Numbered from the stretch's first letter, positions 3 through 22,464 are shown. The stretch is DNA of 64,000 nucleotides from a virus (IMGVR_UViG_3300044719_000205:4702-68701), one strand, 5' to 3'. Numbers and translations are program-made. The notes: generated by a model from the sequence alone, not told the origin.

Positions 3-443
3 GCCATCTCGGAATCCTCTGCTGACACTGTCGCCTCGGCGCTGCTCGAAGGCCGCTTCGAGTTCTTCATGGACCAGCTGCCGACCTCTGAGGCATACAA
101 GGGCAACGCGCTGGAGATCAACCGGGTGGAGGAATATCGCAGGGTCCTCAATGACCTCCTCACCCGCACGGATCGCAACTCCGGCGCGTGCAACATCAGT
201 CGGGATGAACTCAGGACCGTCTTCGACTACACCGTGGGCGGTATCCCCAACACGCCGAACAAGTTCACGACGTACCTGAAGCACCACCGCATCCACATCG
301 GCAAGGTGTGGCTCCATGGCTCGACGGTGAATGGGCTCAAGCTCATGTGGCAGGACACCGACAAATGGAACACGTACCTCAAGACGTTCGCACCGGCCAA
401 GACCAGCGCGCAACCGAAGCGCAAACTGATGGCAGCGAAGTAA
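3..443 (+). CDS. 3' end of a gene that begins before the window; possibly the C-terminal domain of the primase/helicase
   Basis: Frame is open from base 3 (AISESSADTVASALLEGRFEFFMDQLP...). The primase guess is positional only: no primase is seen elsewhere in the window. Confidence 0.45.
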   Translation, partial: AISESSADTVASALLEGRFEFFMDQLPTSEAYKGNALEINRVEEYRRVLNDLLTRTDRNSGACNISRDELRTVFDYTVGGIPNTPNKFTTYLKHHRIHIGKVWLHGSTVNGLKLMWQDTDKWNTYLKTFAPAKTSAQPKRKLMAAK

Positions 444-700
444 GACTCAAGCTCACGATCAAGTACGACCTGCCGCGCGAAGACCGTTATCGCCATCGCG
501 GCACGTGGTGCAGCGCGCTGGTCAAGGGCGGCGGCGAATATGGCTCCATCGACGGCATCTGCATCGTCATCGTGCAGCTCGTTGACCGCACGGGCTGGTG
601 GATCGTGCCGGATAGTAAAGATGACGAAGCCAAGTTCACCGACCGCGGCCCATTCGATACACCCGAAGCTGCGATCGCTTACTTGAGGCTGGTGTCATGA
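308..700 (+). CDS. Small early protein, 'DRGP...RL' paralog family (true start uncertain, 368-440)
   Basis: Ends KFTDRGPFDTPEAAIAYLRLVS; ATGA overlap with the next gene. Confidence 0.6.
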   Translation: MAPWLDGEWAQAHVAGHRQMEHVPQDVRTGQDQRATEAQTDGSEVRLKLTIKYDLPREDRYRHRGTWCSALVKGGGEYGSIDGICIVIVQLVDRTGWWIVPDSKDDEAKFTDRGPFDTPEAAIAYLRLVS

Positions 701-957
701 GCCTCGACTTCACGGTCCCGCTCGACGTAATCGACACGGAGCGCACTGAACGAGGCGCAGGCCAATGGCTCCTACCAAGCCACAGCACTCGCTGGCTATA
801 CGACGGCGTCCATGTGATGCTGTTCAAGCGCAAGGCCAATGACACCTACTGGATCACCTCGCGATGGACCGACGACGAACGCCGTTTCTCCGACCGAGGC
901 CCATACACCAGGACCGAGGTCATCACTCTTCTCCGACTGCAAGGCAACAAGGTATGA
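697..957 (+). CDS. Small early protein, 'DRGP...RL' paralog family
   Basis: Ends RFSDRGPYTRTEVITLLRLQGNKV; ATGA overlaps at both ends. Confidence 0.75.
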   Translation: MSLDFTVPLDVIDTERTERGAGQWLLPSHSTRWLYDGVHVMLFKRKANDTYWITSRWTDDERRFSDRGPYTRTEVITLLRLQGNKV

Positions 958-1289
958 ACAAGCAATCCCTCATCGACGCATTCAAGTCCAACTTCGGCCA
1001 CATGCTGGGCCCGAACATCATCGAAGGCCTCGCCGAGGTCGCGCTGAAGCTCCAGCAGAAGCCGGCCGAGACCTACACCTACACAGCGGTGTATAGCGGA
1101 AACGGTGGTGCGCTCTTCGATAGCATCACCTACGATACGCCGCACGAGGCATGGCGCAAGTCGATGGACCATCCTGACCAGATTGGCATCATGCGCACGC
1201 TGAGCGCCGGCAAGACGGTCAAGGCGATCGAGTTCTTCGCTCGCGGGGACATCCTCAAGCGGGGGCAGCAGTGCCTGGACGAGATCTGA
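954..1289 (+). CDS. Hypothetical protein (MNKQSLIDAF...)
   Basis: ATGA-coupled start at 954 with AAGG upstream. Confidence 0.7.
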   Translation: MNKQSLIDAFKSNFGHMLGPNIIEGLAEVALKLQQKPAETYTYTAVYSGNGGALFDSITYDTPHEAWRKSMDHPDQIGIMRTLSAGKTVKAIEFFARGDILKRGQQCLDEI

Positions 1290-1537
1290 CGGTCTCCAAC
1301 GAACGCCTCGATGCACTGGAAGGCCTGGCTTCCGATCACGCGGACTACGACCTCGTCACGCTGCCAGCCGGGTATTACGACAGCTTCCTCGCCTGCCGTG
1401 GCGAGCGGCTGATCCTCACTCATCTCCGGCCCAGCTACAAGGTCTACGCCCGCGACATCCGCATCGCGGTTTCGCACTATCGGTGCGTGACGAGCAATGA
1501 AATGAAAGCTCGCCTCCTGGGCAGCAAGAAGCAGTAA
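1271..1537 (+). CDS. Hypothetical protein with C-terminal RL tag
   Basis: GTG start after GGGGG; ends NEMKARLLGSKKQ. Confidence 0.65.
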   Translation: MPGRDLTVSNERLDALEGLASDHADYDLVTLPAGYYDSFLACRGERLILTHLRPSYKVYARDIRIAVSHYRCVTSNEMKARLLGSKKQ

Positions 1538-1559
1538 ACTCGCCGTCCCCGGAGGACCC

Positions 1560-1811
1560 ATGCGACGCACCGACAAGCAATTCCTCGACCAGATCCGAGC
1601 GCTGATCGACGCCAATACACGCTATGGCCGGATCACCCTGAGTCCCGCGGATTACGAGGACCTCGCTGACCTTGTTGGCATCGCGAACCCGCGACCAGCC
1701 TCCGCTCCCGGCCTGCACGTCACTCTCGATCTGGTCACCGCCACGATCCTACTCGGCCAAGCCAAGCAGGGCCTCGCTACCGCCATCAAGAACCGCCTCA
1801 CACCAGCATGA
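1560..1811 (+). CDS. Hypothetical protein with C-terminal RL tag
   Basis: GGAGG Shine-Dalgarno (SD); ends LATAIKNRLTPA. Confidence 0.75.
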   Translation: MRRTDKQFLDQIRALIDANTRYGRITLSPADYEDLADLVGIANPRPASAPGLHVTLDLVTATILLGQAKQGLATAIKNRLTPA

Positions 1812-1993
1812 TTACCATCCCTGAACCGATAGCGGGCCAACTTGCTTATTGGATCGCACGTAACAAGAAAGGTGAGCTGGTTCATGGCACACCACTATGG
1901 GAGGAATTCAAGAACTGGGTGTACGTCAACCGCATACACCACTATGTCTTCGATCCCAAATACCAAGAGCACCTTAAACTGCTGCTGCGCTGA
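1808..1993 (+). CDS. Hypothetical protein
   Basis: ATGA-coupled; ends EHLKLLLR (possible tag variant). Confidence 0.65.
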   Translation: MITIPEPIAGQLAYWIARNKKGELVHGTPLWEEFKNWVYVNRIHHYVFDPKYQEHLKLLLR

Positions 1994-2005
1994 AAGACAA
2001 AACCA

Positions 2006-2287: not shown

Positions 2288-2298
2288 TTCGACTCAGG

Positions 2299-2440: not shown

Positions 2441-2445
2441 TCTAA

Positions 2446-2460: not shown

Positions 2461-2481
2461 TACTCTGCAAGGAAGACACTA

Positions 2482-3504
2482 ATGCGCCCCTCTTCGATCG
2501 CCCGCACCGTCACCCTCCTGACCAAGAAGCAGCGTCCGTGCTTCATCTGGGGCCCGCCCGGCGTTGGCAAGTCCGATGTGATCGCCCAGGTCGCTGAGGC
2601 CAACGAGATGGAGCTGCGCGACGTGCGGCTGAACCTGCTCGACCCGGTCGACCTGAAGGGCTTCCCGGTGCCGGACCACGAGACCAAGCAGATGTCCTGG
2701 TACCCGCCTGACTTCTTGCCGCCGATGCACGTGAAGAAGGGCAACAAGATGGTGCCCAATCCCTCGAAGGGCATCCTGTTCCTGGACGAGCTGACCTCCG
2801 CCGAACGCTCGGTGCAGGCCGCCTCCTACCAGCTGATGCTCAACCGTGCGATCGGTGACTACAAGCTGCCCGACGGCTGGTCGATCGTCGCTGCGGGCAA
2901 CCGCGCCAGCGACCGCTCTGTCGTTCACGCCATGCCAGCGGCGCTGTCCAATCGTCTTGTCCACCTCGACTACGAGGTGAACCTCGACGACTGGTGCCAG
3001 TGGGCGCTGAAGAACGGCATCAAACCCGAGGTGCTGGCGTTCATTCGTTTCAAGTCGAACCTGCTGCACGACTTCAAGCCCAGCGACAACCCGCGTGCGT
3101 TTCCCACGCCGCGCAGCTGGATGTTCGTCAACGAGATCATCGGCGAGGGCCTGCCGGCCGATGAGGAGTTCGAGACCATCAAGGGCACCGTCGGCGAAGG
3201 TGCGGCCGGCGAGTTCCTCGCGTTCCTGCGCGTGATCCGCGACATGCCGAACCCGGACGAGATCCTGGTCAATCCGAAGGGTGCGCCGGTGCCCGAGCAG
3301 CCGTCGGTGCTCTACGCGCTCACCACATCCTTGGCGATCCGTGCCACGAAGGACAACTTTGACCGGCTGATGCAGTACACCGACCGGCTGCCCACCGAGT
3401 TCCAGGTGGTCTTCGTGCGCGACAGCGTCAAGCGCTGCGACGACGTGAGCAAGTCGCAGGCGTTCACGAAGTGGGCCATCGCGAATAGCGACGTGCTGAT
3501 GTGA
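2482..3504 (+). CDS. MoxR-like AAA+ ATPase (AAA_5 type)
   Basis: Walker A GPPGVGKS, Walker B ILFLDE, sensor-1 AAGN, arginine finger ALSNRL, PTPRSW. Confidence 0.9.
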   Translation: MRPSSIARTVTLLTKKQRPCFIWGPPGVGKSDVIAQVAEANEMELRDVRLNLLDPVDLKGFPVPDHETKQMSWYPPDFLPPMHVKKGNKMVPNPSKGILFLDELTSAERSVQAASYQLMLNRAIGDYKLPDGWSIVAAGNRASDRSVVHAMPAALSNRLVHLDYEVNLDDWCQWALKNGIKPEVLAFIRFKSNLLHDFKPSDNPRAFPTPRSWMFVNEIIGEGLPADEEFETIKGTVGEGAAGEFLAFLRVIRDMPNPDEILVNPKGAPVPEQPSVLYALTTSLAIRATKDNFDRLMQYTDRLPTEFQVVFVRDSVKRCDDVSKSQAFTKWAIANSDVLM

Positions 3505-3698
3505 ACGACGATGAACTGGTACGGGCGGCCACGTCCGCACCACTTTCTGTTGTCTACGACGTGTGGTGCCGCATCGACCATCATCCGTATGGAAGCTTAA
3601 GCGACTGGTACAAGCACCTTCAACAACGCAATGTGCATGCGCTTGAAGTCGCTGAAAGGATGCTGCCATTGATCGTCGAAGCGAGGCTGAAGCAATGA
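3501..3698 (+). CDS. Small helical protein with RL tag
   Basis: GTGA-coupled; ends LIVEARLKQ. Confidence 0.75.
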   Translation: MNDDELVRAATSAPLSVVYDVWCRIDHHPYGSLSDWYKHLQQRNVHALEVAERMLPLIVEARLKQ

Positions 3699-3910
3699 AC
3701 CGCATCCCGAAGACCGCGCCACCACTGCCCGATCTCGCGATCTGGAAAGAACTCTGGACTTCGGGCAGCCACAACTACGGCAAGCGCATGCGCGGGCTTC
3801 GTGCCTGCGCACGCGACGCCGCCAACGGCAACCGGCGCGCGAAGGAGATCATGGCGCAGGTGTGGGAAGAGCACGCACGCCGTGTCGTTCTGGCGAGGTT
3901 GAAGTCATGA
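3695..3910 (+). CDS. Small helical protein with RL tag
   Basis: Ends ANGNRRAKEIMAQVWEEHARRVVLARLKS. Confidence 0.75.
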   Translation: MNRIPKTAPPLPDLAIWKELWTSGSHNYGKRMRGLRACARDAANGNRRAKEIMAQVWEEHARRVVLARLKS

Positions 3911-4113
3911 GCAGCTGGAACTTCATGAAGGCCATCGACGAGATGGGCCCAGCCAACTTCCGCATCTGGGAGCGCGTGCGCAAGGGCACGCCCTTCAAGG
4001 ATCAGTGCACGCCGCGCGGTGCGATGTACCGCGCAGCCCGCGGCGACGAAGCAGCCAGGGCGATCGTCGAGCAGTACAAGGCCGAGCTGGTAAAAGCGAG
4101 GCTGAAGTCATGA
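3907..4113 (+). CDS. Small helical protein with RL tag
   Basis: ATGA start 3907; ends ARGDEAARAIVEQYKAELVKARLKS. Confidence 0.75.
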   Translation: MSSWNFMKAIDEMGPANFRIWERVRKGTPFKDQCTPRGAMYRAARGDEAARAIVEQYKAELVKARLKS

Positions 4114-4328
4114 CCTGCACTGCGATTGACTCGGTGATGGAAAACTGCATCGCAGATGCAGCCGCGGAGGTATACGGGCGCTACTGGTGGCTCAGGAAAT
4201 TCTGTCCAGACACTCACGAACAATGGCAAGCATTCCTCCACCGCGTCCAAAGGGGCGCAAACGATCCGAGGCGGCGCACGTTGCGCCGGATCTGGCTCCG
4301 CGCCGTCGCACTAAGACTGAGTCGGTGA
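4110..4328 (+). CDS. Small protein with RL tag
   Basis: ATGA start 4110; ends WLRAVALRLSR. Confidence 0.7.
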   Translation: MTCTAIDSVMENCIADAAAEVYGRYWWLRKFCPDTHEQWQAFLHRVQRGANDPRRRTLRRIWLRAVALRLSR

Positions 4329-4606
4329 CGCCGGAGTGGGAGTGGGAGTGGGATGGTGAGCACCGACCTGTACTGATCATGGACGAGGTCTCGCGCATCC
4401 ACACCACGCGCCACGAGATGTTCATTCGCGCTTGCGAGGCCACGCACGGCAACGCCATCAGCCCCAAGACTGTCGCTCGCCTCGATGCCCAGGAGATCGA
4501 AAACCTCATCACCAAGATGCAGCGCTACGCGCGCAGCTCCGATCCGAAGAAAGCACCATGGAAACGACTGAACGCGGCGTTCGTGAAGCTGCTCTTGAAC
4601 TGCTGA
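4325..4606 (+). CDS. Hypothetical protein
   Basis: GTGA-coupled start 4325; ends AFVKLLLNC. Confidence 0.6.
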   Translation: MTPEWEWEWDGEHRPVLIMDEVSRIHTTRHEMFIRACEATHGNAISPKTVARLDAQEIENLITKMQRYARSSDPKKAPWKRLNAAFVKLLLNC

Positions 4607-4863
4607 AGAAAGTGCTTCAAGGCTATAAAGCAGATGGCATCTTGGACGACACGTTCCGCAATCTGTGGCGCGAGTACCTCTACGAGCTGTATGGCCCGCT
4701 CATGAGTCGCGAAAACCACCCGTACCGCAAGTTTGACAGCACTTGGACTGACGACATACGCACACTCAAAGCTGACCTCCGTGCCAATGATCCGAGCGCG
4801 CTGGACTTTGCTGAAAAGTGGCTCACGTGGTGCACCGCTCAACGACTCAAAGGAGAATCCTGA
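4558..4863 (+). CDS. Small helical protein with RL tag
   Basis: Ends ANDPSALDFAEKWLTWCTAQRLKGES; TGATG-coupled to the next gene. Confidence 0.7.
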   Translation: METTERGVREAALELLKKVLQGYKADGILDDTFRNLWREYLYELYGPLMSRENHPYRKFDSTWTDDIRTLKADLRANDPSALDFAEKWLTWCTAQRLKGES

Positions 4864-5687
4864 TGTCCCTCAACACCCAGGCAATGCTGGCGAACCTCAA
4901 CATCAGCCAGTGGACCGCCCGCAAGCACGACCGCAAGGCCACGGCCGAGGTCGAGCAGAACCACGCGGCCAAGGACGCCGGCCGCTTTAACAAGCTCCTC
5001 ATCGACAAGTCCGCGCTGGAAGCGATCCAGAAGGTCGCCAGCGCCGCGCGTGACCACCACTACAAGGTCACGCTGCCCTGGGGCGACAACGGCGACCGGC
5101 TGCTCCCGAGCAAGCTCTACCTCACCTACACCCAGGACATGCGGCTGTTCCGCCAGCAGTTCGAGAGCGAGGTCAACATCTTCGTGCGCGACTACCCGCA
5201 CCTCGTGCAGAGCGCGCGCCAGCGCTTGGGCACGCTGTACGACCCGGCGGACTACCCGATGGACATCCGCGACCGGTTCTCCTTCTCCACCGCCTTCACA
5301 CCAGTCCCCGATGCCAAGGACTTTCGTGTCGATGTGGCCGCCGAGGATGCCGAACGCATCCGCAGCGACATCGAGCGCATGGTGCAGGACCGGCAGGCCC
5401 AGGCCGTACGCGACGCGTTTGACCGGGCCAGGGACATCGTGCTGCGCGTGCGGGACCGCTGCAGCGCCGAGAAGCCAATCATTCGCGAGTCCCTGATGGG
5501 CAACGTGCAGGAACTGATCGACATGCTGCCAGCGTTCAACCTGACCAAGGACCCGAAACTCGACGAGCTGGCCCGCGATCTCAAGGGCCTCGTCAAGCAT
5601 CCCGACGCTCTGCGGACGCGAGCGGACGTGCGCGAGGACACGGCCAAGGCAGCGAGCGACATCCTGTCGAAGATGGGGTGGAACTGA
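4863..5687 (+). CDS. DUF3150-like protein
   Basis: MLxxLxISxWTARK start, TLPWxDNGxRLLP and LGxLYDPADYP patterns typical of the family that accompanies MoxR/vWA genes in mobile elements; AAGGAG SD. Confidence 0.7.
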   Translation: MSLNTQAMLANLNISQWTARKHDRKATAEVEQNHAAKDAGRFNKLLIDKSALEAIQKVASAARDHHYKVTLPWGDNGDRLLPSKLYLTYTQDMRLFRQQFESEVNIFVRDYPHLVQSARQRLGTLYDPADYPMDIRDRFSFSTAFTPVPDAKDFRVDVAAEDAERIRSDIERMVQDRQAQAVRDAFDRARDIVLRVRDRCSAEKPIIRESLMGNVQELIDMLPAFNLTKDPKLDELARDLKGLVKHPDALRTRADVREDTAKAASDILSKMGWN

Positions 5688-5905
5688 GGACGACCCCTTC
5701 AGGTTCGGGCGACACGATCCTCTGGGATGACCGTCCGATCATCTACGCCGCGATCGGCAACTTGCGCTGTCAGTTCCCGGATGTGCACAGCAAGTGGTCA
5801 AGCTCTCGCCATGACAATGCAGTGATCGACGCATTCAAGGACGACCCCAAATTCCGCGAGGCGTTGACGGCCGAGATCATCAAGCTGAGGTTGGAATGGA
5901 GCTGA
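5678..5905 (+). CDS. Small protein, 'DPxFRE' pair, RL tag
   Basis: Ends FKDDPKFREALTAEIIKLRLEWS. Confidence 0.7.
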   Translation: MELRTTPSGSGDTILWDDRPIIYAAIGNLRCQFPDVHSKWSSSRHDNAVIDAFKDDPKFREALTAEIIKLRLEWS

Positions 5906-6171
5906 AGTTCAACAGCGTCAACACAACGGCGCGAGATTATCCGTATCGACCGATCGTCGTTCGCCTGTTCTGTGAAGACAAAGCCCCTCGTACCTTGTTT
6001 GTTGCTGCTGCCGAACGCCTTTACAACTACTACCCCGAAGTGATCGACACGTGGCGCAACGAAAGCGGCGATGGCGTGATTGAAGACCGATACAACAACG
6101 ATCCAGCCTTTCGCGAGATGCTCGTTGAAGCGCTTACTGCCATCTTGGTCAAGCACAAGCTCGTGAGCTGA
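5896..6171 (+). CDS. Small protein, 'DPxFRE' pair
   Basis: Ends YNNDPAFREMLVEALTAILVKHKLVS. Confidence 0.7.
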   Translation: MELKFNSVNTTARDYPYRPIVVRLFCEDKAPRTLFVAAAERLYNYYPEVIDTWRNESGDGVIEDRYNNDPAFREMLVEALTAILVKHKLVS

Positions 6172-6173
6172 TC

Positions 6174-6404
6174 ATGCACTTCGCCAAAGGCAGGATGGAC
6201 GACAAGCAGCGGCTCTATTACGACGCGCTGCGTGCGCTCGCGATCGGGCACGACATCTACCGCAAGAACCTCGTCACATTCACCAACGCCGATGAGCGTT
6301 GGCGCAACCGCTTCATCGCCCACATCGAACGACAATCCGAAGCCGGCCTGCCCTTTGCGGTAGAGCTGGTGCAAGCCGTCACTCTACTCAGGTTGAAAGC
6401 ATGA
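6174..6404 (+). CDS. Small helical protein with RL tag
   Basis: Ends SEAGLPFAVELVQAVTLLRLKA. Confidence 0.75.
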   Translation: MHFAKGRMDDKQRLYYDALRALAIGHDIYRKNLVTFTNADERWRNRFIAHIERQSEAGLPFAVELVQAVTLLRLKA

Positions 6405-7579
6405 CCACCAAGACCCCCGACGCCGAAGTCCTCAAGAAGCTCACCAAGGCACGCGCCACGCTGATCATCGACCAGCCGTTCTTCGGCACGCTGGCGCTGC
6501 GGCTGAAGCTCGTGCCGATGCCCGATGAGCTGGAGGCCATGCAGAAGGCCCGTGGCATGAAGCCCACACTGGCGGTCGATGGCGAGCATATCTACTACTG
6601 CGAAGACTTCATCCGTGACCTCGACCTGCCGCTGGTGAAGTCCGCCTTGGCGCACGAAGTCGGCCACTGCGTGTTCGACCACATCGGCCGCCGCGGGCAC
6701 CGCGATCCGACCGGCTGGAACATGGCCGGCGACTACGTCATCAACGACATGCTCAAGGATGCCGGCTTCCCGCTCGGCGAGGGCTGGCTGTGGAACGCGG
6801 CCTACAAAGGCATGAGCGCGGACCAGATCTACAACCAGCTGCCGAAGAATCCGCAGGGCGGCCAGGGCCAGGGTCAAGGCAAGGGCAACTCCCAGGGCGG
6901 CAACCAACCGCTGTGCGACATCCTCGACGGCAAGCAGGACCCGGCCGACAAGGCGATGCAGCAGAACGACTGGAAGGTGGCGACCATCCAGGCGGCCAAT
7001 GCAGCGAAGCAGCAGGGCAAGCTGCCCGGCTCTCTCGCACGCTTCGTCGAGGAGATGACGGCGAGCAAGGTGGATTGGCGCGACAAGCTGCGCCGCTTCA
7101 TTACCGAGCGCGCCAAGGACGAGTACAACTGGCATCGCCCGAACCGCCGCTACCTGAGCGCAGGCTTGTACCTGCCGAGCCTGTACAGCGAGCACCTGGG
7201 CACGATCGTCGTGGTGACCGATGACTCGGGCTCGATCGGTGACGACATGCTCAAGGCCTTCGCCTCCGAGATCGGCGCGATCCGTGACAGCACGCTGCCC
7301 AAGAAGACCATCCACATCTCCTGCGACGCTCGCGTCAACCACGTGGCCGAGTTCGAGCAGCACGACGAGTTCAAGCTCGTCAGCAAGGGCGGTGGTGGCA
7401 CCGACTTCCGCCCGCCCTTCGACTGGCTCGACAAGCGCGGCATCAAGCCGGCATGCCTCGTGTACCTCACGGACATGTACGGCAGTTTCCCGCAGCAGGC
7501 GCCGGATTACCCGGTGCTGTGGTGCGCCACGACCGGACAGGTGGGGCCATGGGGCGAGACGGTGAAGATCGAGTTGTAA
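6401..7579 (+). CDS. Metallopeptidase + vWA domain protein (DUF2201-like)
   Basis: HExxH (AHEVGHC), MIDAS DxSxS (TDDSGSI), GGGGTDF, LTDMYG; ATGA start at 6401. Confidence 0.85.
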   Translation: MTTKTPDAEVLKKLTKARATLIIDQPFFGTLALRLKLVPMPDELEAMQKARGMKPTLAVDGEHIYYCEDFIRDLDLPLVKSALAHEVGHCVFDHIGRRGHRDPTGWNMAGDYVINDMLKDAGFPLGEGWLWNAAYKGMSADQIYNQLPKNPQGGQGQGQGKGNSQGGNQPLCDILDGKQDPADKAMQQNDWKVATIQAANAAKQQGKLPGSLARFVEEMTASKVDWRDKLRRFITERAKDEYNWHRPNRRYLSAGLYLPSLYSEHLGTIVVVTDDSGSIGDDMLKAFASEIGAIRDSTLPKKTIHISCDARVNHVAEFEQHDEFKLVSKGGGGTDFRPPFDWLDKRGIKPACLVYLTDMYGSFPQQAPDYPVLWCATTGQVGPWGETVKIEL

Positions 7580-7806
7580 AGGCTTCGATACCGTTCACGC
7601 ATCGTCAGCTGCGCTGCTTTGCGTACCTCGCCAATGACGAACGAGGCATGGCGCTTTTTGAGCATGCAGGAGCACAACGTGTCGCGTTACAGGACCAACA
7701 CGGTCAGTGGTTCCTTGTATGCAATGAAGGCTCTAGCGAACACGGAGACATCGGGCCGGTGCCTTTCGAAGTGGCACTGGCCCTCGTTCGATTGAAAGGA
7801 ACATGA
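7549..7806 (+). CDS. Small protein, 'DxGP...RL' paralog family
   Basis: Ends EHGDIGPVPFEVALALVRLKGT; ATG 7549 preceded by AGGTG. Confidence 0.65.
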   Translation: MGRDGEDRVVKASIPFTHRQLRCFAYLANDERGMALFEHAGAQRVALQDQHGQWFLVCNEGSSEHGDIGPVPFEVALALVRLKGT

Positions 7807-8285
7807 ACATGGGATGCGACATCCACCTTGTGCTGGAGCGCAAGGACAAGGAGCGCGACCGCTGGGTCGGCGTGCGGAGCTACCGCTACTTCGCAGCGAG
7901 CCTGCTGTACCGCGTGAAGATCACCAGCAACTACGCCGGATACGTCCTCAAGCAGCGCGACTACAGTCTCTTCAACGACCTCTGTGGTGTGCGCGGCGAC
8001 GGCTCCGAGTTCGGCTACGAGCCCAAGGGCTTGCCCGATGACATGTCGGACCTGACAGCAATGGAGCTGAGCGACGACAGCGACCTGCACAGCCATTCCT
8101 GGCTCAGCATGGCCGAGCTACGGCCGGTGATGGAGAAGCACTTCGGTCCGCAGCTCGTTGCCGGTCGGCTCAAGGACGAAGTGCGTGCCGGTGCCGACGT
8201 GCTGCGCACGTTCGTCGACGACGACATCGGCGATGAGTACGCACCTGAAGAAAACTGGCGTCTGGTGTTCGCCTTCGACAATTGA
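7803..8285 (+). CDS. Conserved phage protein (MGCDIH...AFDN type)
   Basis: MGCDIH, RDYSLF, PKGLPDD, HSHSWL, RLVFAFDN motifs. Confidence 0.75.
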   Translation: MNMGCDIHLVLERKDKERDRWVGVRSYRYFAASLLYRVKITSNYAGYVLKQRDYSLFNDLCGVRGDGSEFGYEPKGLPDDMSDLTAMELSDDSDLHSHSWLSMAELRPVMEKHFGPQLVAGRLKDEVRAGADVLRTFVDDDIGDEYAPEENWRLVFAFDN

Positions 8286-8449
8286 TGGGCAAGCCGCTTC
8301 CGCCCGGCCCGGTGTGGGAGTGCCCGGGGTGCCAGCGCGCCTACGGGCACTACTTCACCCAGTGCGCCTACTGCAAGCCCACCATCTACAGGCCAGGACA
8401 TGAAGTTCAGCGAACTGCCCGACAACGTAAAGGACCGCCTACGCGATGA
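8285..8449 (+). CDS. Small C4 zinc-ribbon protein (54 aa, below the ORF-track cutoff)
   Basis: TGATG-coupled; MGKPLPPGPVWECPGCQRAYGHYFTQCAYCKP... Confidence 0.6.
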   Translation: MGKPLPPGPVWECPGCQRAYGHYFTQCAYCKPTIYRPGHEVQRTARQRKGPPTR

Positions 8450-9005
8450 AAGGCGTGACTGGAACGTGCAGGACAGCGACTGGTGGAGCAGCGTCTACGA
8501 CGACTTTCTCGTCATCGCTGACCTGATCGGCCTCGTCACCCACAAGGGCGCCATCTCGTTCTCCGGCTTCTGGAGCCAGGGCGATGGCGCGAGCTTCGTT
8601 GGTTCCTGGACACCCGAGGAAGGCATGCTCGAAGCCGTCAAGGCGCATGCGCCCGAGGACAAGGCCTTGCACGCGCTCGTCGAGCGCCTCGTCACCGTGG
8701 TGGTGCGCCAGCGCCTGCGCAGCAACGAGAAGATCGCCGTCGAAATCGGCCGCACCGGCGGCCACTACGTGCACTCCGGGTGCATGACGGTCACCACGCA
8801 GCTCATCGACGACAGCAGCCCCGAGTACGAGGTTCACACGGACCCCGAGGAGGAAGACGAGCACGAGCTGAAGTGGACCTTCCGCGGCCTCGCTGACTGG
8901 CTGTACCGGCAGCTCGAGAAGGAGCACGAGTACCTCACCTCGGACGAAGTCGTCGATCAGAGCTTCGACGGCGAGGAGTTCGACGAAGCTGGCGAGCCGA
9001 TCTAA
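8400..9005 (+). CDS. Conserved acidic phage protein
   Basis: WWxxVYDDF, FSGFWSQGDGASF, LYRQLEKEHEYLTSDE. Confidence 0.75.
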   Translation: MKFSELPDNVKDRLRDERRDWNVQDSDWWSSVYDDFLVIADLIGLVTHKGAISFSGFWSQGDGASFVGSWTPEEGMLEAVKAHAPEDKALHALVERLVTVVVRQRLRSNEKIAVEIGRTGGHYVHSGCMTVTTQLIDDSSPEYEVHTDPEEEDEHELKWTFRGLADWLYRQLEKEHEYLTSDEVVDQSFDGEEFDEAGEPI

Positions 9006-9013
9006 GTTAGATG
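8999..9013. promoter_or_regulatory. Palindromic operator-like site (GATCTAA-G-TTAGATG)
   Basis: Motif copy at the end of the 8400 gene, upstream of the nuclease. Confidence 0.55.
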
Positions 9014-9047
9014 TAAGATCGCGGCCTCTACCCATTAAGGACATTCC

Positions 9048-9773
9048 ATGGATGCACGCGTCGCGGGCCCGATCAAGTCGTGGTCCCACTCCAAGCTCGT
9101 CGAGTTCGACAAGTGCAAGCGCCGGGTGTGGCTCATGCACGTGCAGCGCATCCCCGAACCACAGCGCCCGCTGCCGCCGGGTAAGACTGAGCACGCCAAC
9201 GACCGTGGCTCCCGCGTCCACGACAATGCCGAACGCTACGTGCGCGGCGACGATCACGTGCTATGCATCGAAGCCGAGAAGCACTTCGGCCCACAGATCG
9301 ACTTCCTGCGCGTGCTCTACCAGGAAGGGCTCGTCTCCCTCGAAGGCGAGTGGGGCGTCGACCAGGACTGGAACCCGTGCGACTACAAGAGCGCATGGCA
9401 TCGCTCCAAGCTCGATGCGATCGTGTTCTGGGACAAGACCCACGCCACGGTCATCGACTACAAGACCGGCAAGAAATTCGGCAACGAGGTCAAGCACGGC
9501 GAGCAGATGCAGCTCTACCAGCTCAACGCGTTCCTGCGCTACCCCGAGCTGGAGGAGATCACGTGCGAGCTGTGGTACCTCGACGTGAATGAGGTGACCA
9601 GCCGCACCTTCACCCGCTCGCAAGGCCTGCGCTTCAAGGACAACTTCCATCGCCGCGGCATGGCGATGACCAGCTGCACGGAGTTCCCGCCCAATGCCAA
9701 CGTCTTCTCCTGTCAATACTGCATGTACGGCTCCTGGGGCACCGGACACTGCGAAGTCGGAGTCAAGCGCTGA
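9048..9773 (+). CDS. PD-(D/E)XK exonuclease, Cas4/RecB-like, with four-Cys cluster
   Basis: WSHSKL..F.KC, G..VH, KLD, VIDYKTGK, QMQLY, C-terminal CQYC...C. Confidence 0.85.
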   Translation: MDARVAGPIKSWSHSKLVEFDKCKRRVWLMHVQRIPEPQRPLPPGKTEHANDRGSRVHDNAERYVRGDDHVLCIEAEKHFGPQIDFLRVLYQEGLVSLEGEWGVDQDWNPCDYKSAWHRSKLDAIVFWDKTHATVIDYKTGKKFGNEVKHGEQMQLYQLNAFLRYPELEEITCELWYLDVNEVTSRTFTRSQGLRFKDNFHRRGMAMTSCTEFPPNANVFSCQYCMYGSWGTGHCEVGVKR

Positions 9774-12444: not shown

Positions 12445-12764
12445 AACGCCGCGCTCCTGCCCGCGTCAACGCCAAGTCGACGGCGGTGATGCTCAGCTCG
12501 ATGATGCACCGGGCACGCACGGTGGCGCAGCTCGTGGAAGACACGGGCCTTGCCGTCTGCACCGTGCGTCGCTATATCCGCGCGCTGCACGAGCACAACC
12601 CGAAGGTGGTGTTTATCGCGATGCGCGTGCCGGATCAGCACGGCAAGATGAACACCAAGGCCTACATGGTCGGCGATGCACCGGATGCACCGCCGTGCCC
12701 AAAGACGGCCAAGCAAAACGAAGCCGCGTATGCCGAGCGCAAACGCAAGAAAGGAACACGCTGA
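12441..12764 (+). CDS. Putative helix-turn-helix DNA-binding protein
   Basis: TVAQLVEDTGLAVCTVRRYIRAL fits an HTH pattern; basic C-terminus. Confidence 0.6.
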   Translation: MKRRAPARVNAKSTAVMLSSMMHRARTVAQLVEDTGLAVCTVRRYIRALHEHNPKVVFIAMRVPDQHGKMNTKAYMVGDAPDAPPCPKTAKQNEAAYAERKRKKGTR

Positions 12765-14812
12765 TGGGCTGGGGCTCCGCACTGAAGAAGGCTCGCACCT
12801 TCGAGACCGAGTCGGCCATCCGGCCGCAGATTAGCAACGAGCAGATCGACTGGGACCGGCTGGTCTCGCTCGACTTCGAGTCGTACTACGACAGCGACTA
12901 CACGCTCAGGAAGCTCTCGACCTCCGAGTACATCCGCGATCCGCGCTTCGAGGCGCTGATGTGCGGCATCAAGGTCGGGCGCAGGAAGACCAAGCTCGTG
13001 CACGGCCCCAAGATCGCTGAGGAGCTGCGCAAGATCAATTGGGACACCCATTCCCTGCTCGCCCACCATGCGCAGTTCGACGGCTTCATCCTGAGCCACC
13101 ACTACGGCGTCAAGCCCAGGCGCATCTACTGCACGCTGTCGATGGCGCGCGGGCTGCACTCGACCGAGATCGGCGCCGGCCTCGACGAGGTGAGCCAGTT
13201 CTATGGCGGCCGCGGCAAGATCGCCGGCGGCGTCGAGAACATGGCGGGCCTGCACTACAAGGACCTCGTCAAGGACAAGGCGAAGTGGCAGGCCGCAGCC
13301 GACTACTGCGTCAACGACGTGGAGGAGATGTACCGGATCTTCCAGGCCATGCACCCGCAGATGCCCGCCGAGGAGATGGACATCATCGACATCACGTGCC
13401 GGCTGTTCACGGACCCGGTGCTGCTGGTTGATGAAGAGCGCGTCACCAAGGAACTCGAGCGCGAGCTGGAGGAGAAAAAGCAGCTGCTGATCTCCATCAT
13501 CGGTACGCCCAAGGTGGTCAAGGCCCGGCTCACCCAGATCCTCGACGACAAGAAGCTCCAGGCGAAGAAGCAGTTCCAGGGCTGGACCGCCGAGGAGATC
13601 CTGCTCGAGGAAGCGCGCAAGATGATCTCGAGCAACGAGAGCTTCGCGGACCTCCTGCGCGCCGAAGGCGTCGAGCCGCCGGTGAAGATCAGCCCGGCGT
13701 ACTTCAAGCACCGCGACGAATCCAAGAAGTGGGCCTATGCGTTCGCCAAGACCGATCTCAACTTCACCCAGCTCAGCGAGCACCCGAAGAAGCGCGTGCG
13801 TGACCTCGTCGAGTGCCGGTTGAGTGTGAAGAGCACGATCGACGAGACACGTGCCGGTCGGCTGCTGCAGGCCGGCAAGGGCGGCCTGCCGCTGCCGGTG
13901 TATCTGCGCTACTACGGCGCTCACACCGGCCGCTGGTCGGGCGGCAACAAGATGAACCTGCAGAACCTGCGCCGAGGCGGGGAGCTGCGCAAGTCGATCA
14001 AGGCGCCGAAGGGCCACATGGTCCTGGTCGCCGACTCGGGCCAGATCGAGGCGCGCGTCAACGCGTGGCTGTGGGGTCAGGAAGACCTCTTGGAGGCATT
14101 CCTGCGCGGCGACCGCAAGGAAGACCGCGACGTGTACTGCAAGTTCGCCGACGAGATCTATGGTCGCGAGATCAAGAAAGGCGTCGACGACCTGGAGCGC
14201 TTCGTCGGCAAGATCGCCGTGCTCGGCCTCGGGTACCAGATGGGCGCGCCGAAGTTCCAGAACACCCTCGCGCTCGGCACGATGGGGCCGCCGGTGTACT
14301 TCGAGCTGGACATGTGCCAGAAGATCGTCAACGCGTACCGGCGCAAGAACTACAAGATCCAGCAGGGCTGGGGCATCTGCACACGGATCATCCACGACAT
14401 GGCCGCTGGGCGCTGCGGCACGCACGGGCCGATCTCCTGGGAGAAGGAGACGATCTGGTTGCCCAATGGCATGGCCTTGAAGTACCCGGACCTGAAACTC
14501 AAGGTCGACGGGGAGTTCGAGGAGTGGAGCTACTCCCGCAAGGGCGAGCGCGCCAAGATCTACGGCGGCCTGCTGTGCGAGAACATCGTGCAGGCGCTGG
14601 CGCGGATCATCGTCGGCTGGCAGCTGCTGCAGATCGCCAAACTGATGCGCGTCGTCATGACCACGCACGATGAGGTGGTGGCGATCGAGAAGGCCAAGGC
14701 CGCGCAGAAGAGCTTCGACCGCATGATCCAGATCATGCGCACGCCGCCCGAGTGGTGCGCCGACATCCCGCTCAATGCGGAAGGCGGTTTCGATGTCATC
14801 TACTCGAAATGA
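12764..14812 (+). CDS. polA: DNA polymerase, family A, with 3'-5' exonuclease domain
   Basis: ExoI DFESY, HTGRWSG, NLQNL, motif A DSGQIEAR, motif B KIAVLGLGY, motif C THDEV; TGATG start 12764. Confidence 0.92.
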   Translation: MGWGSALKKARTFETESAIRPQISNEQIDWDRLVSLDFESYYDSDYTLRKLSTSEYIRDPRFEALMCGIKVGRRKTKLVHGPKIAEELRKINWDTHSLLAHHAQFDGFILSHHYGVKPRRIYCTLSMARGLHSTEIGAGLDEVSQFYGGRGKIAGGVENMAGLHYKDLVKDKAKWQAAADYCVNDVEEMYRIFQAMHPQMPAEEMDIIDITCRLFTDPVLLVDEERVTKELERELEEKKQLLISIIGTPKVVKARLTQILDDKKLQAKKQFQGWTAEEILLEEARKMISSNESFADLLRAEGVEPPVKISPAYFKHRDESKKWAYAFAKTDLNFTQLSEHPKKRVRDLVECRLSVKSTIDETRAGRLLQAGKGGLPLPVYLRYYGAHTGRWSGGNKMNLQNLRRGGELRKSIKAPKGHMVLVADSGQIEARVNAWLWGQEDLLEAFLRGDRKEDRDVYCKFADEIYGREIKKGVDDLERFVGKIAVLGLGYQMGAPKFQNTLALGTMGPPVYFELDMCQKIVNAYRRKNYKIQQGWGICTRIIHDMAAGRCGTHGPISWEKETIWLPNGMALKYPDLKLKVDGEFEEWSYSRKGERAKIYGGLLCENIVQALARIIVGWQLLQIAKLMRVVMTTHDEVVAIEKAKAAQKSFDRMIQIMRTPPEWCADIPLNAEGGFDVIYSK

Positions 14813-14996
14813 TGCGCTGCGCCAATACATCCGCGAGCTGGCCGTGCTCGAGTATTTCGTCGTGTTGCGCCTCAATACACTAGTGAATGGTTACGACGGG
14901 CTCATCACTAGTTCGAAGTTCCGTGCGCTGCGCTGGCTCATCACGAACTGGCGCGAGCACCAGCAGAAGGCCGTCCTCGCCCGACTGCAATCCTGA
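14793..14996 (+). CDS. Small protein with RL tag
   Basis: Ends EHQQKAVLARLQS. Confidence 0.55.
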   Translation: MSSTRNDALRQYIRELAVLEYFVVLRLNTLVNGYDGLITSSKFRALRWLITNWREHQQKAVLARLQS

Positions 14997-15120: not shown

Positions 15121-15546
15121 ATGGCACGAGCCGCAGTGAAGGACGCCGCCACCGCCAAAGCCGTGAAGCTGCGGCTGGTCGGCACCATCGGTGGCATGAC
15201 CGACGAGATGTTCGACTTGCGCGAGAAGAAGCGCGCACTCGAAGCCCAGATCGCCGAGATCGAAGAGCAGTACAAGGCGATCGAGGAGAAGCTCATGGAG
15301 CGCCTCGAAGCCGAGGGCACCGACAAGGGCGCGGGCAAGAAGGCCTCGTGCTCGATCACCAGCTCGGTGGTCGCCAACGTCACCGACTGGGACGAGTTCG
15401 GCGCCTTCATCCTCAAGCACAAGTACCTCCACCTTCTGCAGCGGCGGGTCTCCGATCCGGCGGTGCGTGAGCTGTTCGAGACCAAGGGCAAGGTGCCCGG
15501 TGTCGAGCCGTTCACCAAGAAGAAGCTCAACCTCCGCGTCATCTGA
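15121..15546 (+). CDS. Coiled-coil protein, Gam/Gp157-like
   Basis: N-terminal heptad helix, VTDWDEF..F, LLQRRVS, VPGV; AAGGAG SD. Confidence 0.55.
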   Translation: MARAAVKDAATAKAVKLRLVGTIGGMTDEMFDLREKKRALEAQIAEIEEQYKAIEEKLMERLEAEGTDKGAGKKASCSITSSVVANVTDWDEFGAFILKHKYLHLLQRRVSDPAVRELFETKGKVPGVEPFTKKKLNLRVI

Positions 15547-18689: not shown

Positions 18690-18692
18690 ATC

Positions 18693-19133: not shown

Positions 19134-19146
19134 GCTTTCTTTCAAC

Positions 19147-19332: not shown

Positions 19333-20318
19333 ACAAGGCCTGGGTGCTGTCCTGGGTGCAGAATGGCAAGCAGCGCCGCAAGGTCGTGGGCCGGCTCACC
19401 ACCATGAGCAAGCGCGAGGCTGAACTGGTGCGCAAGGCCAAGGAGCTGGAGCTTGCCACCGGCAAGAAGCTCCTGAATGTCTCTGTGCGCTCGATCCTCT
19501 GGACCACGTTCTGCGATCAGTACCTTGACTGGAGAGTGCGCGAATTCCCGTCGTCCGCGGTGCAGGTCAAGAGCCTAGTGGATGGGCACCTTCGCCCGAA
19601 GTTCGAACATCTAACGTTGGATCGAATCACCAGCGATTCGATCGAAGAATACAAGGCCGAGCGGCTCGAGGAAGTGCGCGCAGCGACAGTGGTGAAGGAA
19701 CTCAACACCCTGCGCGCGATGTTCGAATACGCGATCACCAAGAAGCTGGTGCAGGTCAACCCGGGCCGGGTCATTCCGAACCCGCAGCTGCTCAACAGCG
19801 TGCCGCGCGAGTTCTACACGCTGGAGCAGCTGAAGCAGCTCTACGCCGCCGAGATCAACGCCGGCTACGACGCGATGTGGAAGCTCTTCGCCAACACCGG
19901 CATGCGCCGCAAGGAAGGGCTGCAGCTGAAGTGGACGCACGTGACGGCGAAGTCGATCCGCATCCTGTCGACTGAGGAGGCGCGCACCAAGAGCGCGAAG
20001 TGGCGCGAGGTGCCGCTCACCGAGTCGGGCATCGAGGCGCTGATGAAACTGCGCGTGTACAACCAGAACGAGTTCGTGCTGCCGCGCATGGAGCTGTCGA
20101 GCCTGTCGCGGGCGTTCACGCGCACCGCCAAACGCGCGCTGCTGCCGGGCTCGATCCACTGGTTGCGCCACACGTTCATCAGCCACCTCGTAATGGCCGG
20201 GCGGCCGCTGCGCACCGTGCAGGTGCTCGCCGGGCATAGCACGATCGCGGTGACGGAGAAGTACGCGCACCTCGCGCCGGACTACATGGCAGACGTGATG
20301 AAGGGAATCAATCTGTGA
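19311..20318 (+). CDS. int: Tyrosine recombinase (phage integrase)
   Basis: Catalytic R (TGMRRKE), K (TKS), HxxR (HWLRH), H (LAGH), Y (TEKYAH). Confidence 0.92.
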   Translation: MATVRAVDKAWVLSWVQNGKQRRKVVGRLTTMSKREAELVRKAKELELATGKKLLNVSVRSILWTTFCDQYLDWRVREFPSSAVQVKSLVDGHLRPKFEHLTLDRITSDSIEEYKAERLEEVRAATVVKELNTLRAMFEYAITKKLVQVNPGRVIPNPQLLNSVPREFYTLEQLKQLYAAEINAGYDAMWKLFANTGMRRKEGLQLKWTHVTAKSIRILSTEEARTKSAKWREVPLTESGIEALMKLRVYNQNEFVLPRMELSSLSRAFTRTAKRALLPGSIHWLRHTFISHLVMAGRPLRTVQVLAGHSTIAVTEKYAHLAPDYMADVMKGINL

Positions 20319-20590
20319 GCGAGCTATCGGACACCCAGCGCAAGCTACGCGAGTTGGGTTGGCAGCGTTGGGACTACGATCGCGCCCGCATGGAAGGCTG
20401 GCGCCTGGATGCGTTGTGGGGCGGTCGAGGCCGTGTGCTCGTTGCCCGCCACACCCACATCCCCGGCGACGTATCGCGCTTCGGATCTCGCAAGGAAGCT
20501 GAGGCTCACGTGATGAAGAAGGCGTCTGAAGGCTCGCAACTGCACATGCACGCGCTCGCCATCATCGCCAAAGCGAGGCTCTTGAAATGA
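20315..20590 (+). CDS. Small protein with RL tag
   Basis: Ends ASEGSQLHMHALAIIAKARLLK. Confidence 0.7.
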   Translation: MSELSDTQRKLRELGWQRWDYDRARMEGWRLDALWGGRGRVLVARHTHIPGDVSRFGSRKEAEAHVMKKASEGSQLHMHALAIIAKARLLK

Positions 20591-20832: not shown

Positions 20833-21101
20833 CGTTCGACGAAGCCAAAGCCGAGTTCATGACTGCGGTGCGCGGGTTGAGCCCACACTCGGTCGCTGTT
20901 GCCCTCGGCGAGTTCACGTTCGGCGTCAACTGGCGGCGATGCCCGAAGGGGCACATGGCCGAGCAGTACGCACGCGCCGTCGTCGGTGGTCCGAAGTACA
21001 TCCCCTCGCACCCGCGGCTTGCGTACATCGACCTACAGCGGCTTGCGCGCGTTGCCCGCGCCTGGGAGAACAAGGAACCGATGTGGAGGCACACCGAGTA
21101 G
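20829..21101 (+). CDS. Hypothetical protein
   Basis: ATGA-coupled with GGAG SD. Confidence 0.65.
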   Translation: MTFDEAKAEFMTAVRGLSPHSVAVALGEFTFGVNWRRCPKGHMAEQYARAVVGGPKYIPSHPRLAYIDLQRLARVARAWENKEPMWRHTE

Positions 21102-21126
21102 TCGCTGCTATTTTTCTGCTATTTCC

Positions 21127-21154
21127 GTACCAAACAGTACCACTCAGTACCACT
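21127..21154 (+). repeat. Probable integrase arm-type sites
   Basis: GTACCA x3 at 10-bp period; CAGTACCACT x2, about 27 bp from the att core. Confidence 0.55.
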
Positions 21155-21181
21155 CCCTGCTTTTCCAAGTGCTTGATTCGG

Positions 21182-21227
21182 TGGCGTCCCCAAGGGGATT
21201 CGAACCCCTGTACTCACCGTGAAAGGG
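21182..21227 (-). mobile_element. attP core = 3' half of tRNA-Glu(UUC)
   Basis: Minus strand CC-CTTTCAC-GGTGAGTAC-AGGGG-TTCGAAT-CCCCT-TGGGGAC-GCCA: anticodon loop, T arm, acceptor strand and CCA are present; no D arm or 5' half. Confidence 0.85.
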
Positions 21228-21283
21228 CGCGCGTAGCGCCTTGAGGATCAAGACCTTGGAGGGGCAGCTGCTAGAAAGCTGCT

Positions 21284-22192
21284 ATGTCCTTCAAGCCGAT
21301 GCTCGCCGCCGCAGCCGATCTCGAGAAGCTGCGCTTCCCACTCTACGCCTCACCGAAGCTCGACGGCATCCGTGCCATCGTGCGCGACGGCGTGGTCCTC
21401 TCCCGCACGCTCAAGCCGATCCCGAACGCGCACGTGCAGCGCGTTTTCGGCAATCAGGCCTACAACGGCGTCGATGGTGAGCTGATCGTCGGGCCGCCCA
21501 CCAGCAAGACCGTCTACCAGGACACCGTCAGTGGCGTCATGAGCCGCGACGGCGAACCCGACGTGACGTTCTATGCGTTCGACTATCTGCCCACCGACGG
21601 CTGGACCGAGTACCCGTGGCTGCATCGCTTCACGGAGCTGAAGCGGCGCATCAACTACGTGCTCATCGAGCCGCTGGACCACTGGGAGATCACGAACCAC
21701 GGCGGGCTTTTCGGGACCGAGGAGAAGGTCATCGAGCGCGGCTACGAAGGCCTGATCCTGCGCCATCCACAGGCGACGTACAAGTTCGGCCGCAGCACCG
21801 TCAACGAGGGCTACCTGCTCAAGCTCAAGCGCTTCCAGGACAGCGACGCGATCGTGCTCGACGTGATCGAGGAGATGTTCAACGGCAACGAGGCGACCAA
21901 GGACGAGCTTGGTAGGACCAAGCGCTCCAGCGCCAAGGCCGGCAAGGTCGGCAAGGGCACGATGGGCGCGCTCAAGGTGATGGACATCCACACCGGTGTC
22001 GAATTCGAGTGCGGTGCGGGCTTCACAGCCGAGCAGCGCGCGAAGTTCTACACGGACCCGCCGAAGCTCATCAAGTACAAGTTCTTCCCGATCGGCGTCA
22101 AGGACAAGCCGCGGCACCCGGTGTTCCTCGGTGCGCGTGATCCGAGTGATGTCGAGTTGAGCACGGCGATGCGTACGAGGCTGCGGAAATGA
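21284..22192 (+). CDS. lig: ATP-dependent DNA ligase (minimal type)
   Basis: Motif I SPKLDGIR, DGEL, YAFD, EGLILR, LLKLK, C-terminal PRHPVF. Confidence 0.9.
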   Translation: MSFKPMLAAAADLEKLRFPLYASPKLDGIRAIVRDGVVLSRTLKPIPNAHVQRVFGNQAYNGVDGELIVGPPTSKTVYQDTVSGVMSRDGEPDVTFYAFDYLPTDGWTEYPWLHRFTELKRRINYVLIEPLDHWEITNHGGLFGTEEKVIERGYEGLILRHPQATYKFGRSTVNEGYLLKLKRFQDSDAIVLDVIEEMFNGNEATKDELGRTKRSSAKAGKVGKGTMGALKVMDIHTGVEFECGAGFTAEQRAKFYTDPPKLIKYKFFPIGVKDKPRHPVFLGARDPSDVELSTAMRTRLRK

Positions 22193-22464
22193 GCAAGACC
22201 GAACAGATTGAGCTTGAGTTCGAGCGCCAGCTTGGCATCGGCTCTTACCGCACGCTGCACTGGGGCGGTCTCCGCTTGGCCTCTGGTACCGCGGGGGCGA
22301 TCTGGACGTTCTTCACCTACCTGCGCGCCATATTCGGGGCCATGGACGGCTCTGGCTACCTGATGGCGATCTTCTCGCTCGCTGCGATGTGCGTGTGCTG
22401 GTACGCCGAACGGCGCCACCAGCGGTGCGTCGCCGAGGACGTGAAAGCGAGGCTGCTGTCGTGA
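22189..22464 (+). CDS. Small two-TM membrane protein with RL tag
   Basis: Two hydrophobic segments; ends AEDVKARLLS. Confidence 0.7.
   Translation: MSKTEQIELEFERQLGIGSYRTLHWGGLRLASGTAGAIWTFFTYLRAIFGAMDGSGYLMAIFSLAAMCVCWYAERRHQRCVAEDVKARLLS

Follow-up and report, generated by a model that had tools for sequence, protein, structure and literature searches.

In a 64,000-nucleotide stretch of viral DNA (the window; bases 4702-68701 of the 68,701-bp IMG/VR virus record IMGVR_UViG_3300044719_000205, which carries direct terminal repeats), many small early proteins end in a shared C-terminal tail built around an Arg-Leu (RL) pair. This tail is very probably a functional motif acting at the protein level, and sequence comparison indicates that purifying selection maintains it on 15 or more small early proteins of unrelated sequence, with similar sets in related genomes. 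What is new is that the tailed genes cluster inside a module encoding a MoxR-type AAA+ ATPase, a DUF3150-like protein and a zincin peptidase fused to a vWA domain (DUF2201). As the best overall explanation we tentatively favor a tail that serves as a common handle for this phage module.

In the corrected gene list, 19 of the 60 plus-strand genes encode RL within the last 9 residues, compared with 2.95 expected from the frequency of the dipeptide in the same plus-strand proteins (p = 3.9e-11); one of the 19, at 7803-8285, looks like a chance match. A scan of the last 10 residues of plus-strand proteins, covering all dipeptides with none pre-selected, ranked RL first in this genome (G000) and in the relatives G001 and G002 and second in G004, and RL pooled over five genomes reached 60 occurrences against 14.6 expected (p = 1.5e-20). 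The dipeptide scan found no RL enrichment at the C-termini of late proteins, which agrees with a preliminary description of this DNA that had confined the motif to early-gene ends. Pseudomonas phage KPP25 likewise gave no RL enrichment (2 versus 2.1), and no module was seen in it. The tail is not peculiar to this phage: it is common to a clade with 51-91% DNA polymerase identity, in which R-M occurs as a variant, and its carriers make up about a third of the early genes in this phage and its relatives.

Aligning the tails on RL with one sequence per family (35 families) confined the information to positions from approximately -8 to +1, with nothing conserved further upstream. The consensus is [L/V]-A-x-h-[V/A]-[K/L/E]-A-R-[L/M], followed by 1 to 6 residues and the stop codon; the positions after RL carry 0.3-0.5 bits. 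The RL consensus of the preliminary description is real, but the pair is only part of it, since the motif extends over about 10 residues and closes a C-terminal helix. A weight matrix of the tail matched C-termini approximately 60 times more densely than protein interiors, a ratio that overstates the difference, since the tails themselves had served to train the matrix.

Tail-like segments also occur away from C-termini. The 62-residue product of 22461-22649 begins I-I-K-E-R-L-L-G-S-K-G, matching the tail M-K-A-R-L-L-G-S-K-K-Q-stop of 1271-1537; window positions 22461-22520 and 1502-1537 are identical at 18 of 24 nucleotides, with synonymous differences, and this N-terminal copy perhaps derives from an old gene fusion. 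The DNA polymerase PolA contains an interior P-K-V-V-K-A-R-L-T-Q (window 13500-13540, near residue 247) that is not conserved in the polymerase consensus of its relatives, and the gene at 15121-15546 carries A-K-A-V-K-L-R-L-V-G near its N-terminus (window 15148-15190).

Shine-Dalgarno (SD) sites embedded in the end of an upstream gene mediate translational coupling at ATGA overlaps and constrain nucleotides in any reading frame. In the window, AGG accounts for 3.9% of Arg codons in early gene bodies versus 11 of 18 tails, and 10 of these 11 codons lie within (G/A/C)AGG-NNN-NNN-NNA-TGA, exactly 8 nt before an overlapping ATG or GTG; the AGG of the tail ending at 5905 lies 5 nt before the start codon of the next gene. 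The Arg codons listed in the preliminary description are correct (AGG in 11 tails; CGA in four, ending at 957, 4863, 7806 and 14996; CGC in two, ending at 1537 and 1811; AGA in one, ending at 4328). It had also proposed that the SD can move into Lys-Gly codons while RL is kept, and this was confirmed for the tails ending at 4863 and 7806, where the SD lies downstream, inside AAA-GGA. Across five genomes, SD-type codons write RL in 25 of 61 tails (11 of 18 in the window) and the remainder do not. The AGG- or AGA-coded (AGR) tails number 25 against 0.66 expected, and in 20 of the 25, RL is followed by exactly two residues.

Modeling of the SD codons, which the preliminary description had named as the step at which the enrichment might vanish, leaves it in place: CGN-coded RL tails number 36 in the five genomes against 14.0 expected (p = 3e-7). 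In these tails RL lies 1 to 8 residues from the stop, and any SD is found further downstream, for example in K-G-E or G-E codons. Comparison of reciprocal-best orthologues puts the conservation of R and L at 85% and 80% in CGN tails versus 46% for neighboring residues, and at 92% and 88% in AGR tails versus 53% for neighbors. Within orthologue groups the Arg codon alternates between AGG or AGA and CGG, CGA or CGC, and the Leu codon may be any of CTG, TTG, CTT, CTC and TTA. Because CGN-coded RL is still enriched and both residues are conserved while their codons change, the motif stands at the protein level, and the earlier argument that the double use of AGG as SD cannot explain it is upheld. 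Translational coupling shapes which codon is used and exactly where, but not the peptide. A single codon thus has two roles, as the Arg of a protein motif and as the ribosome-binding site of the next gene. The nucleotide signal that remains is an over-use of TTG and CGA in tails. Among the non-AGG tails (those ending at 957, 4863, 7806 and 14996, and in relatives), CGA occurs 9 times against 1.03 expected in the five genomes; it makes up 4.9% of Arg codons in gene bodies, and an SD role of the tail CGA is not evident. This excess may be a trace of drift from AGG through AGA to CGA, or it may reflect selection for a slow codon.

After removal of the last 15 residues, BLAST resolved about 40 tailed families in the five genomes. 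Within the window it identified three paralogue pairs (365-700 and 697-957; 1271-1537 and 1560-1811; 5678-5905 and 5896-6171). The preliminary figure of about 19 unrelated carriers therefore stands in so far as the carriers are largely unrelated, but the pairs bring it closer to 15-16 independent families in this genome. Profile-profile comparison (hhalign) of 32 tail families with tails trimmed gave 1 of 496 pairs above 20% probability, no more than a tail-versus-non-tail control, the family profiles being shallow and very distant homology beyond their reach. Hidden Markov model iteration from the single seed 3907-4113 did not link the families, and searches of the small tailed proteins against Pfam and PHROGs returned no significant family, the sole match being one sub-threshold Pfam entry. 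Descent of the carriers from a single paralogous family, overt or hidden, was rejected at the current sensitivity of BLAST, hhalign and a deep profile of 6174-6404, which recovers two copies per prophage and only its own orthologue in G000-G004. The model of 697-957 reaches a predicted local distance difference test (pLDDT) score of 55 only and is informative at best for secondary structure, suggesting beta strands followed by a C-terminal helix that includes RL.

The module begins at its left edge with the MoxR-type AAA+ ATPase (2482-3504, plus strand; Pfam AAA_5, E = 6.2e-5, above the cut-off; PHROG 1297, E = 2.7e-105). Its middle gene is DUF3150-like (4863-5687, plus; E = 3.7e-4, below the Pfam cut-off), with a position conserved in relatives, and its third encodes the zincin metallopeptidase fused to vWA (6401-7579, plus; Pfam DUF2201_N, E = 1.6e-47, and DUF2201, E = 3.7e-22; PHROG 1314, E = 3.5e-103). 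In the orthologue alignment the peptidase HExxH is intact as a conserved H-E-V-x-H, and so is the DxSxS of the vWA metal ion-dependent adhesion site (MIDAS), with D-D-S-G-S, G-G-T and L-T-D conserved in four orthologues and invariant across a five-sequence alignment. The ATPase and the peptidase-vWA gene are both present, neighboring and conserved in relatives.

The densest run of tailed genes is interrupted by these three larger genes. Across ten genomes, 37 of 72 small genes (51%) inside the block from the AAA+ gene to the peptidase gene carry an R-[L/M] tail, versus 36 of 300 (12%) elsewhere, corresponding to an odds ratio of 7.8 with the same direction in 10 of 10 genomes. The R-[L/M] tails of the Herminiimonas and Janthinobacterium prophages (L049 and L050), and those of L020 and L023, are confined to the block; L015 has one on 1 of 4 small genes inside and on 2 of 28 outside. 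This anchoring of the motif in a single conserved gene module leaves fewer candidate readers.

Homologues of the peptidase occur in 568 phage records. PHROG 1314 and many GenBank and RefSeq records call proteins of this type 'HNH endonuclease', a label that is probably a spread annotation error because Pfam, HExxH and DxSxS identify a zincin peptidase-vWA fusion. In the prophages, some small genes inside or beside the module encode tails of Gly-Tyr-Gly-Asp or Gly-Asp repeats (…GYGDGYG…, …DGDGDGDG…), at 2600-2842 and 5692-5952 in L049 and at 397-615 and 4990-5274 in L050.

Directly upstream of the peptidase lies a small gene at 6174-6404 (plus; F1) whose predicted four-helix product ends …VTLLRLKA. 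It is conserved in five genomes, where RL is invariant while its codons change. A word-indexed homologue search returned only the protein itself and its G001 counterpart; a profile search of 1.84 billion representatives recovered 102 relatives. Of these relatives 101 are short; 81 of them have the R-[L/M] tail, 58 of the 81 stop exactly two residues after it, and in an alignment of 30 diverse members the tail Arg is the sole invariant column. The structure model (pLDDT 92) is a four-helix bundle in which RL ends helix 4, and a Foldseek search with it found no match in the PDB at E <= 0.001. This protein carries the archetype of the tail. Judged from these alignments, the tail defines a conserved subunit of the module; within this clade it is found on many unrelated proteins as well.

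These features, together with the analogy to known vWA-MoxR systems discussed below, lead us to propose, with some reserve, that the tail is read by the phage's own MoxR-type AAA+/DUF3150/zincin-vWA module. The conserved small subunit 6174-6404, whose gene adjoins that of the peptidase, bears the archetypal tail, and other early proteins bearing the same tail would be engaged by the same machine. Engagement might lead to ATP-driven remodeling, or to C-terminal processing and turnover. Developed fully, the proposal describes a phage addressing system in which the module recognizes a C-terminal ...R-[L/M]-x-x that, within this clade, was copied onto at least 15 unrelated early proteins, even the DNA ligase; we regard this extended form as conceivable rather than probable.

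Several points weigh against a handle for the module. About half of the tails in this phage lie outside the block, and the p-value of the inside-versus-outside comparison is only indicative because orthologues were counted repeatedly. In the 6174-6404 model the tail appears as the end of helix 4 in a packed bundle rather than as a free peptide. Moreover, gene calls came from a simple custom caller (codon log-odds plus SD score), so the starts of small genes are approximate. Finally, an ATPase-peptidase module needs no tail array, because phage N4 has such a pair, gp24/gp25, and no shared tail was found in N4; on this ground, presence of the module was rejected as a sufficient predictor of tails.

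The first alternative is that the tail docks early proteins onto a host (Burkholderiales) protein, for instance a protease reading a degron, RNA polymerase or another hub, and that the module is merely a neighbor. We consider this rather doubtful, although the evidence for protein-level selection serves it equally well. It accommodates the tails far from the module (those ending at 14996, 20590, 22192 and 22464) and the presence of the module without tails in N4, and a clade-specific motif with prophages in Oxalobacteraceae and Comamonadaceae would fit adaptation to one host group. However, the residues after RL vary in kind and in number (1-6), unlike ssrA- or MuA-type degrons, and a host reader leaves unexplained both the positional bias toward the module and the conserved module subunit that itself bears the tail.

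A second alternative dispenses with a common partner: the tail would be a self-contained structural element closing a packing helix and placing Arg at the border of the apolar face, kept by each protein for its own folding and spread by the reuse of gene junctions (tail end, SD and start codon) when small genes were gained, fused or replaced. The packed helix 4 of 6174-6404 is compatible with this, as are the three paralogue pairs and the marginal profile matches. The DNA ligase of G000 and G001 has gained an 11-residue extension that includes RL together with the SD of the next gene, and the tail-like K-E-R-L-L-G-S-K at the N-terminus of 22461-22649 is what junction reshuffling predicts. Yet unrelated folds would not all require the same R-L, which follows from no general helix-capping rule, and KPP25 and N4 have similarly compact operons without a shared tail. 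Synonymous sites in the tails have also diverged, which implies that the sharing is old and kept by selection. On balance, this explanation appears unlikely.

A pure by-product of translational coupling is more improbable still. Here a (G)AGG SD placed 8 nt before ATGA would simply be read as Arg, with nucleotide constraints fixing the next codon. The otherwise rare AGG at its exact spacing, the large excess of AGR tails with two residues after RL, and the over-use of TTG and CGA are all expected under this account, and so is a parallel L-L-E-[E/D] tail in Vibrio phage pVa5 that is partly written TGGAGGA. The 2.6-fold enrichment and the conservation of CGN-coded RL largely refute it. In addition, the Leu codons vary at first and third positions and Phe (TTC) never appears, some tails are followed by more than 100 nt without a gene start (such as that ending at 14996), and the late genes, KPP25 and N4 use SDs in compact operons without an excess of RL. 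Lastly, a membrane-targeting amphipathic helix like the C-termini of MinD and FtsA, which also contain K-R-L, would suit the helical character and the net charge of +1.2 over 11 residues but is hardly credible, being rejected on a mean hydrophobic moment of 0.26 (non-tail C-termini, 0.31; MinD, 0.45; FtsA, 0.57), with no aromatic residues in the tail and a helix that is packed in the one confident model (6174-6404).

The proposed handle for the phage module can be set beside several known systems. The ssrA tag (LAA-COOH) and the MuA-type basic tails recognized by ClpX are read at the extreme C-terminus. The tail described here resembles such degrons as a short signal on many unrelated proteins; unlike them, it is variable in its last 1-6 residues and has its conserved pair within a helix. 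A ClpX degron of the ssrA or MuA type was rejected, given the 0.3-0.5 bits after RL. The capsid-targeting sequence of T4 is an N-terminal tag on late, virion-packaged internal proteins that is removed by the prohead protease. It too is a phage-specific short tag on unrelated proteins, recognized by a phage machinery with a protease among its parts; unlike it, the present tail is C-terminal and on early genes. The AGG Arg codon of 10-11 tails, 8 nt before the overlapping start, is a coupling SD, but here the amino acids persist where the SD has moved or is absent.

The closest parallel is provided by bacterial systems whose vWA domains serve MoxR ATPases by capturing peptides (Kaur, Burroughs, Iyer, Aravind 2020, PMC7159879), and in which a zincin peptidase accompanies small proteins that diverge fast except for a conserved C-terminal peptide of the 'FxSxx-COOH' type (PMC7159879). 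Like them, the present array combines a MoxR-type AAA+ ATPase, a MIDAS vWA domain, a zincin peptidase and small diverging proteins that conserve only a short C-terminal peptide. Unlike these bacterial conflict systems, it is located in a phage early/replication operon, it has peptidase and vWA domain in a single fused protein, and its third component is DUF3150 rather than VMAP, iSTAND or FtsH. Its peptide is R-[L/M] at a helix end rather than FxSxx, RxD or acidic, and there are dozens of carriers instead of one precursor, cleavage being only hypothetical. Because its third gene is DUF3150-like and its tail is R-[L/M], the phage module is an analogue of these systems and not a member of them.

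Among phages, a MoxR AAA+/metallopeptidase-vWA pair was noted in group 2.2 jumbo phages and proposed to act in virion assembly and processing (Iyer et al. 2021, PMC7824862), with no mention of tagged clients (PMC7824862). The present pair is like the PHROG 1297 and 1314 pair of N4-like phages in its gene order relative to the DNA polymerase; unlike the described jumbo-phage pair, it is intermixed with small tailed genes of the early region. The N4-like phage pVa5 (L053, KX889068.2) has another shared tail of a different kind: in region 3363-12674, 11 of approximately 25 annotated small proteins around the same pair end h-x-x-[L/I]-[L/M]-E-[E/D/G/A/M]. Several of these tails are written CTG-GAG-GA, which contains the TGGAGGA SD of the overlapping next gene, and some have no gene within about 70 nt. 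No paper describing a C-terminal tail common to phage early proteins, or the function of DUF3150 or DUF2201, came up in a literature search; the preliminary description had likewise known of no account of the tag. The known kinds are short C-terminal recognition peptides and vWA-MoxR peptide systems, and the array reported here is a candidate system.

The genome background points to a temperate lifestyle. The GC content of the window is 60-72%, and codon statistics assign replication and early genes to the plus strand up to approximately window position 24,550 and late genes to the minus strand. Recognizable plus-strand genes encode a D5/VapE-type primase-helicase, a PD-(D/E)XK nuclease, an SNF2 helicase, PolA, an Rv2179c-like exonuclease, a tyrosine integrase, an ATP-dependent ligase and a dUTPase. 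The nearest isolate is KPP25, with a polymerase identity of 39%, and a megablast of 8 kb against isolate phages gave no match. Uncultured relatives are nearer (G001, 91%; G002-G004 and L006, 57-61%), as are the prophages L049, L050 and L051 (51-55%), found in Herminiimonas sp. CN, a Janthinobacterium metagenome-assembled genome (MAG) and a Rhodoferax MAG. These prophages, which lie in genomes of Oxalobacteraceae and Comamonadaceae, make Burkholderiales the probable hosts and, taken with the integrase at 19344-20318, suggest that the phage is temperate. Among the late genes, 47350-47883 (minus strand) encodes a putative extracytoplasmic function (ECF) sigma factor (Pfam Sigma70_r2, sub-threshold at E = 6.4e-5 and 23.1 bits versus a cut-off of 24). 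Some tails appear to resemble the beginning of ECF sigma region 2.

All 18 RL tails and the three variants quoted in the preliminary description match the sequence letter for letter at their stop positions, and all lie on the plus strand. Upstream of the module, the gene at 365-700 (308-700 in that description; start uncertain) ends …AIAYLRLVS with AGG CTG 8 nt before the ATG at 697, and its paralogue 697-957 ends …ITLLRLQGNKV (CGA CTG). The second pair comprises 1271-1537 (…MKARLLGSKKQ, CGC CTC) and 1560-1811 (…AIKNRLTPA, CGC CTC). A weak variant at 2006-2287 ends …IASRISGKTLII, with R-I (CGA ATC) followed by 7 residues.

Between the ATPase and the DUF3150-like gene, three consecutive genes end …IVEARLKQ (3501-3698; AGG CTG, SD for 3695), …VVLARLKS (3695-3910; AGG TTG, SD for 3907) and …LVKARLKS (3907-4113; AGG CTG, SD for 4110). 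They are followed by 4110-4328 (start 4005 or 4110; …AVALRLSR, AGA CTG, with AGG CTC in the G001 orthologue) and 4612-4863 (start 4432 or 4612; …TAQRLKGES, CGA CTC, with the SD shifted into AAA GGA GAA), whose G001 orthologue has QL in place of RL. Between the DUF3150-like gene and 6174-6404 lie the third pair, 5678-5905 (…IIKLRLEWS, AGG TTG, 5 nt before the ATG at 5896) and 5896-6171, a K-L variant ending …LVKHKLVS.

Downstream of the peptidase, 7549-7806 (start 7453 or 7549) ends …LALVRLKGT (CGA TTG). Two open frames overlap at 7580-7806: the RL frame has a third-position GC content (GC3) of 0.55 and is backed by a conserved G001 orthologue, and the competing frame 7634-7795 has a GC3 of 0.75 and no orthologue, so the caller's choice of the latter is probably wrong. 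Further along are 9694-9909 (start uncertain; a CxxC, then …IKARLLR, AGG CTC; orthologue not found), 10088-10300 (with Cys pairs; …FALARLTK, AGG TTG) and 11897-12130, an R-I variant (…VKQRITQ, CGC ATT) whose G001 orthologue also has R-I. The gene 3' of the DNA polymerase, 14793-14996, ends …AVLARLQS (CGA CTG), and its next gene is 124 nt away, leaving no SD role. The remaining carriers are 20315-20590 (…IAKARLLK, AGG CTC), the ATP-dependent DNA ligase 21284-22192 (…AMRTRLRK), and 22189-22464 (…DVKARLLS, AGG CTG), which has a hydrophobic, membrane-like middle. The C-terminal extension of the ligase occurs only in G000 and G001, where RL lies beyond the point at which the G002-G004 homologues stop.

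Most early phage genes are small ORFans, and a shared, selected tail would give one experimental handle on a third of them; searches for such motifs must control for the overlap between SD sites and Arg codons. If the module reads the tail, this would be the first function for the widespread phage MoxR/peptidase-vWA pair, and a single machine could act on an entire set of early effectors by remodeling, processing or clearing them. Parallel tails specific to other lineages, such as L-L-E-[E/D] in Vibrio phage pVa5, would in that case represent a general, undescribed layer of phage gene-product control.

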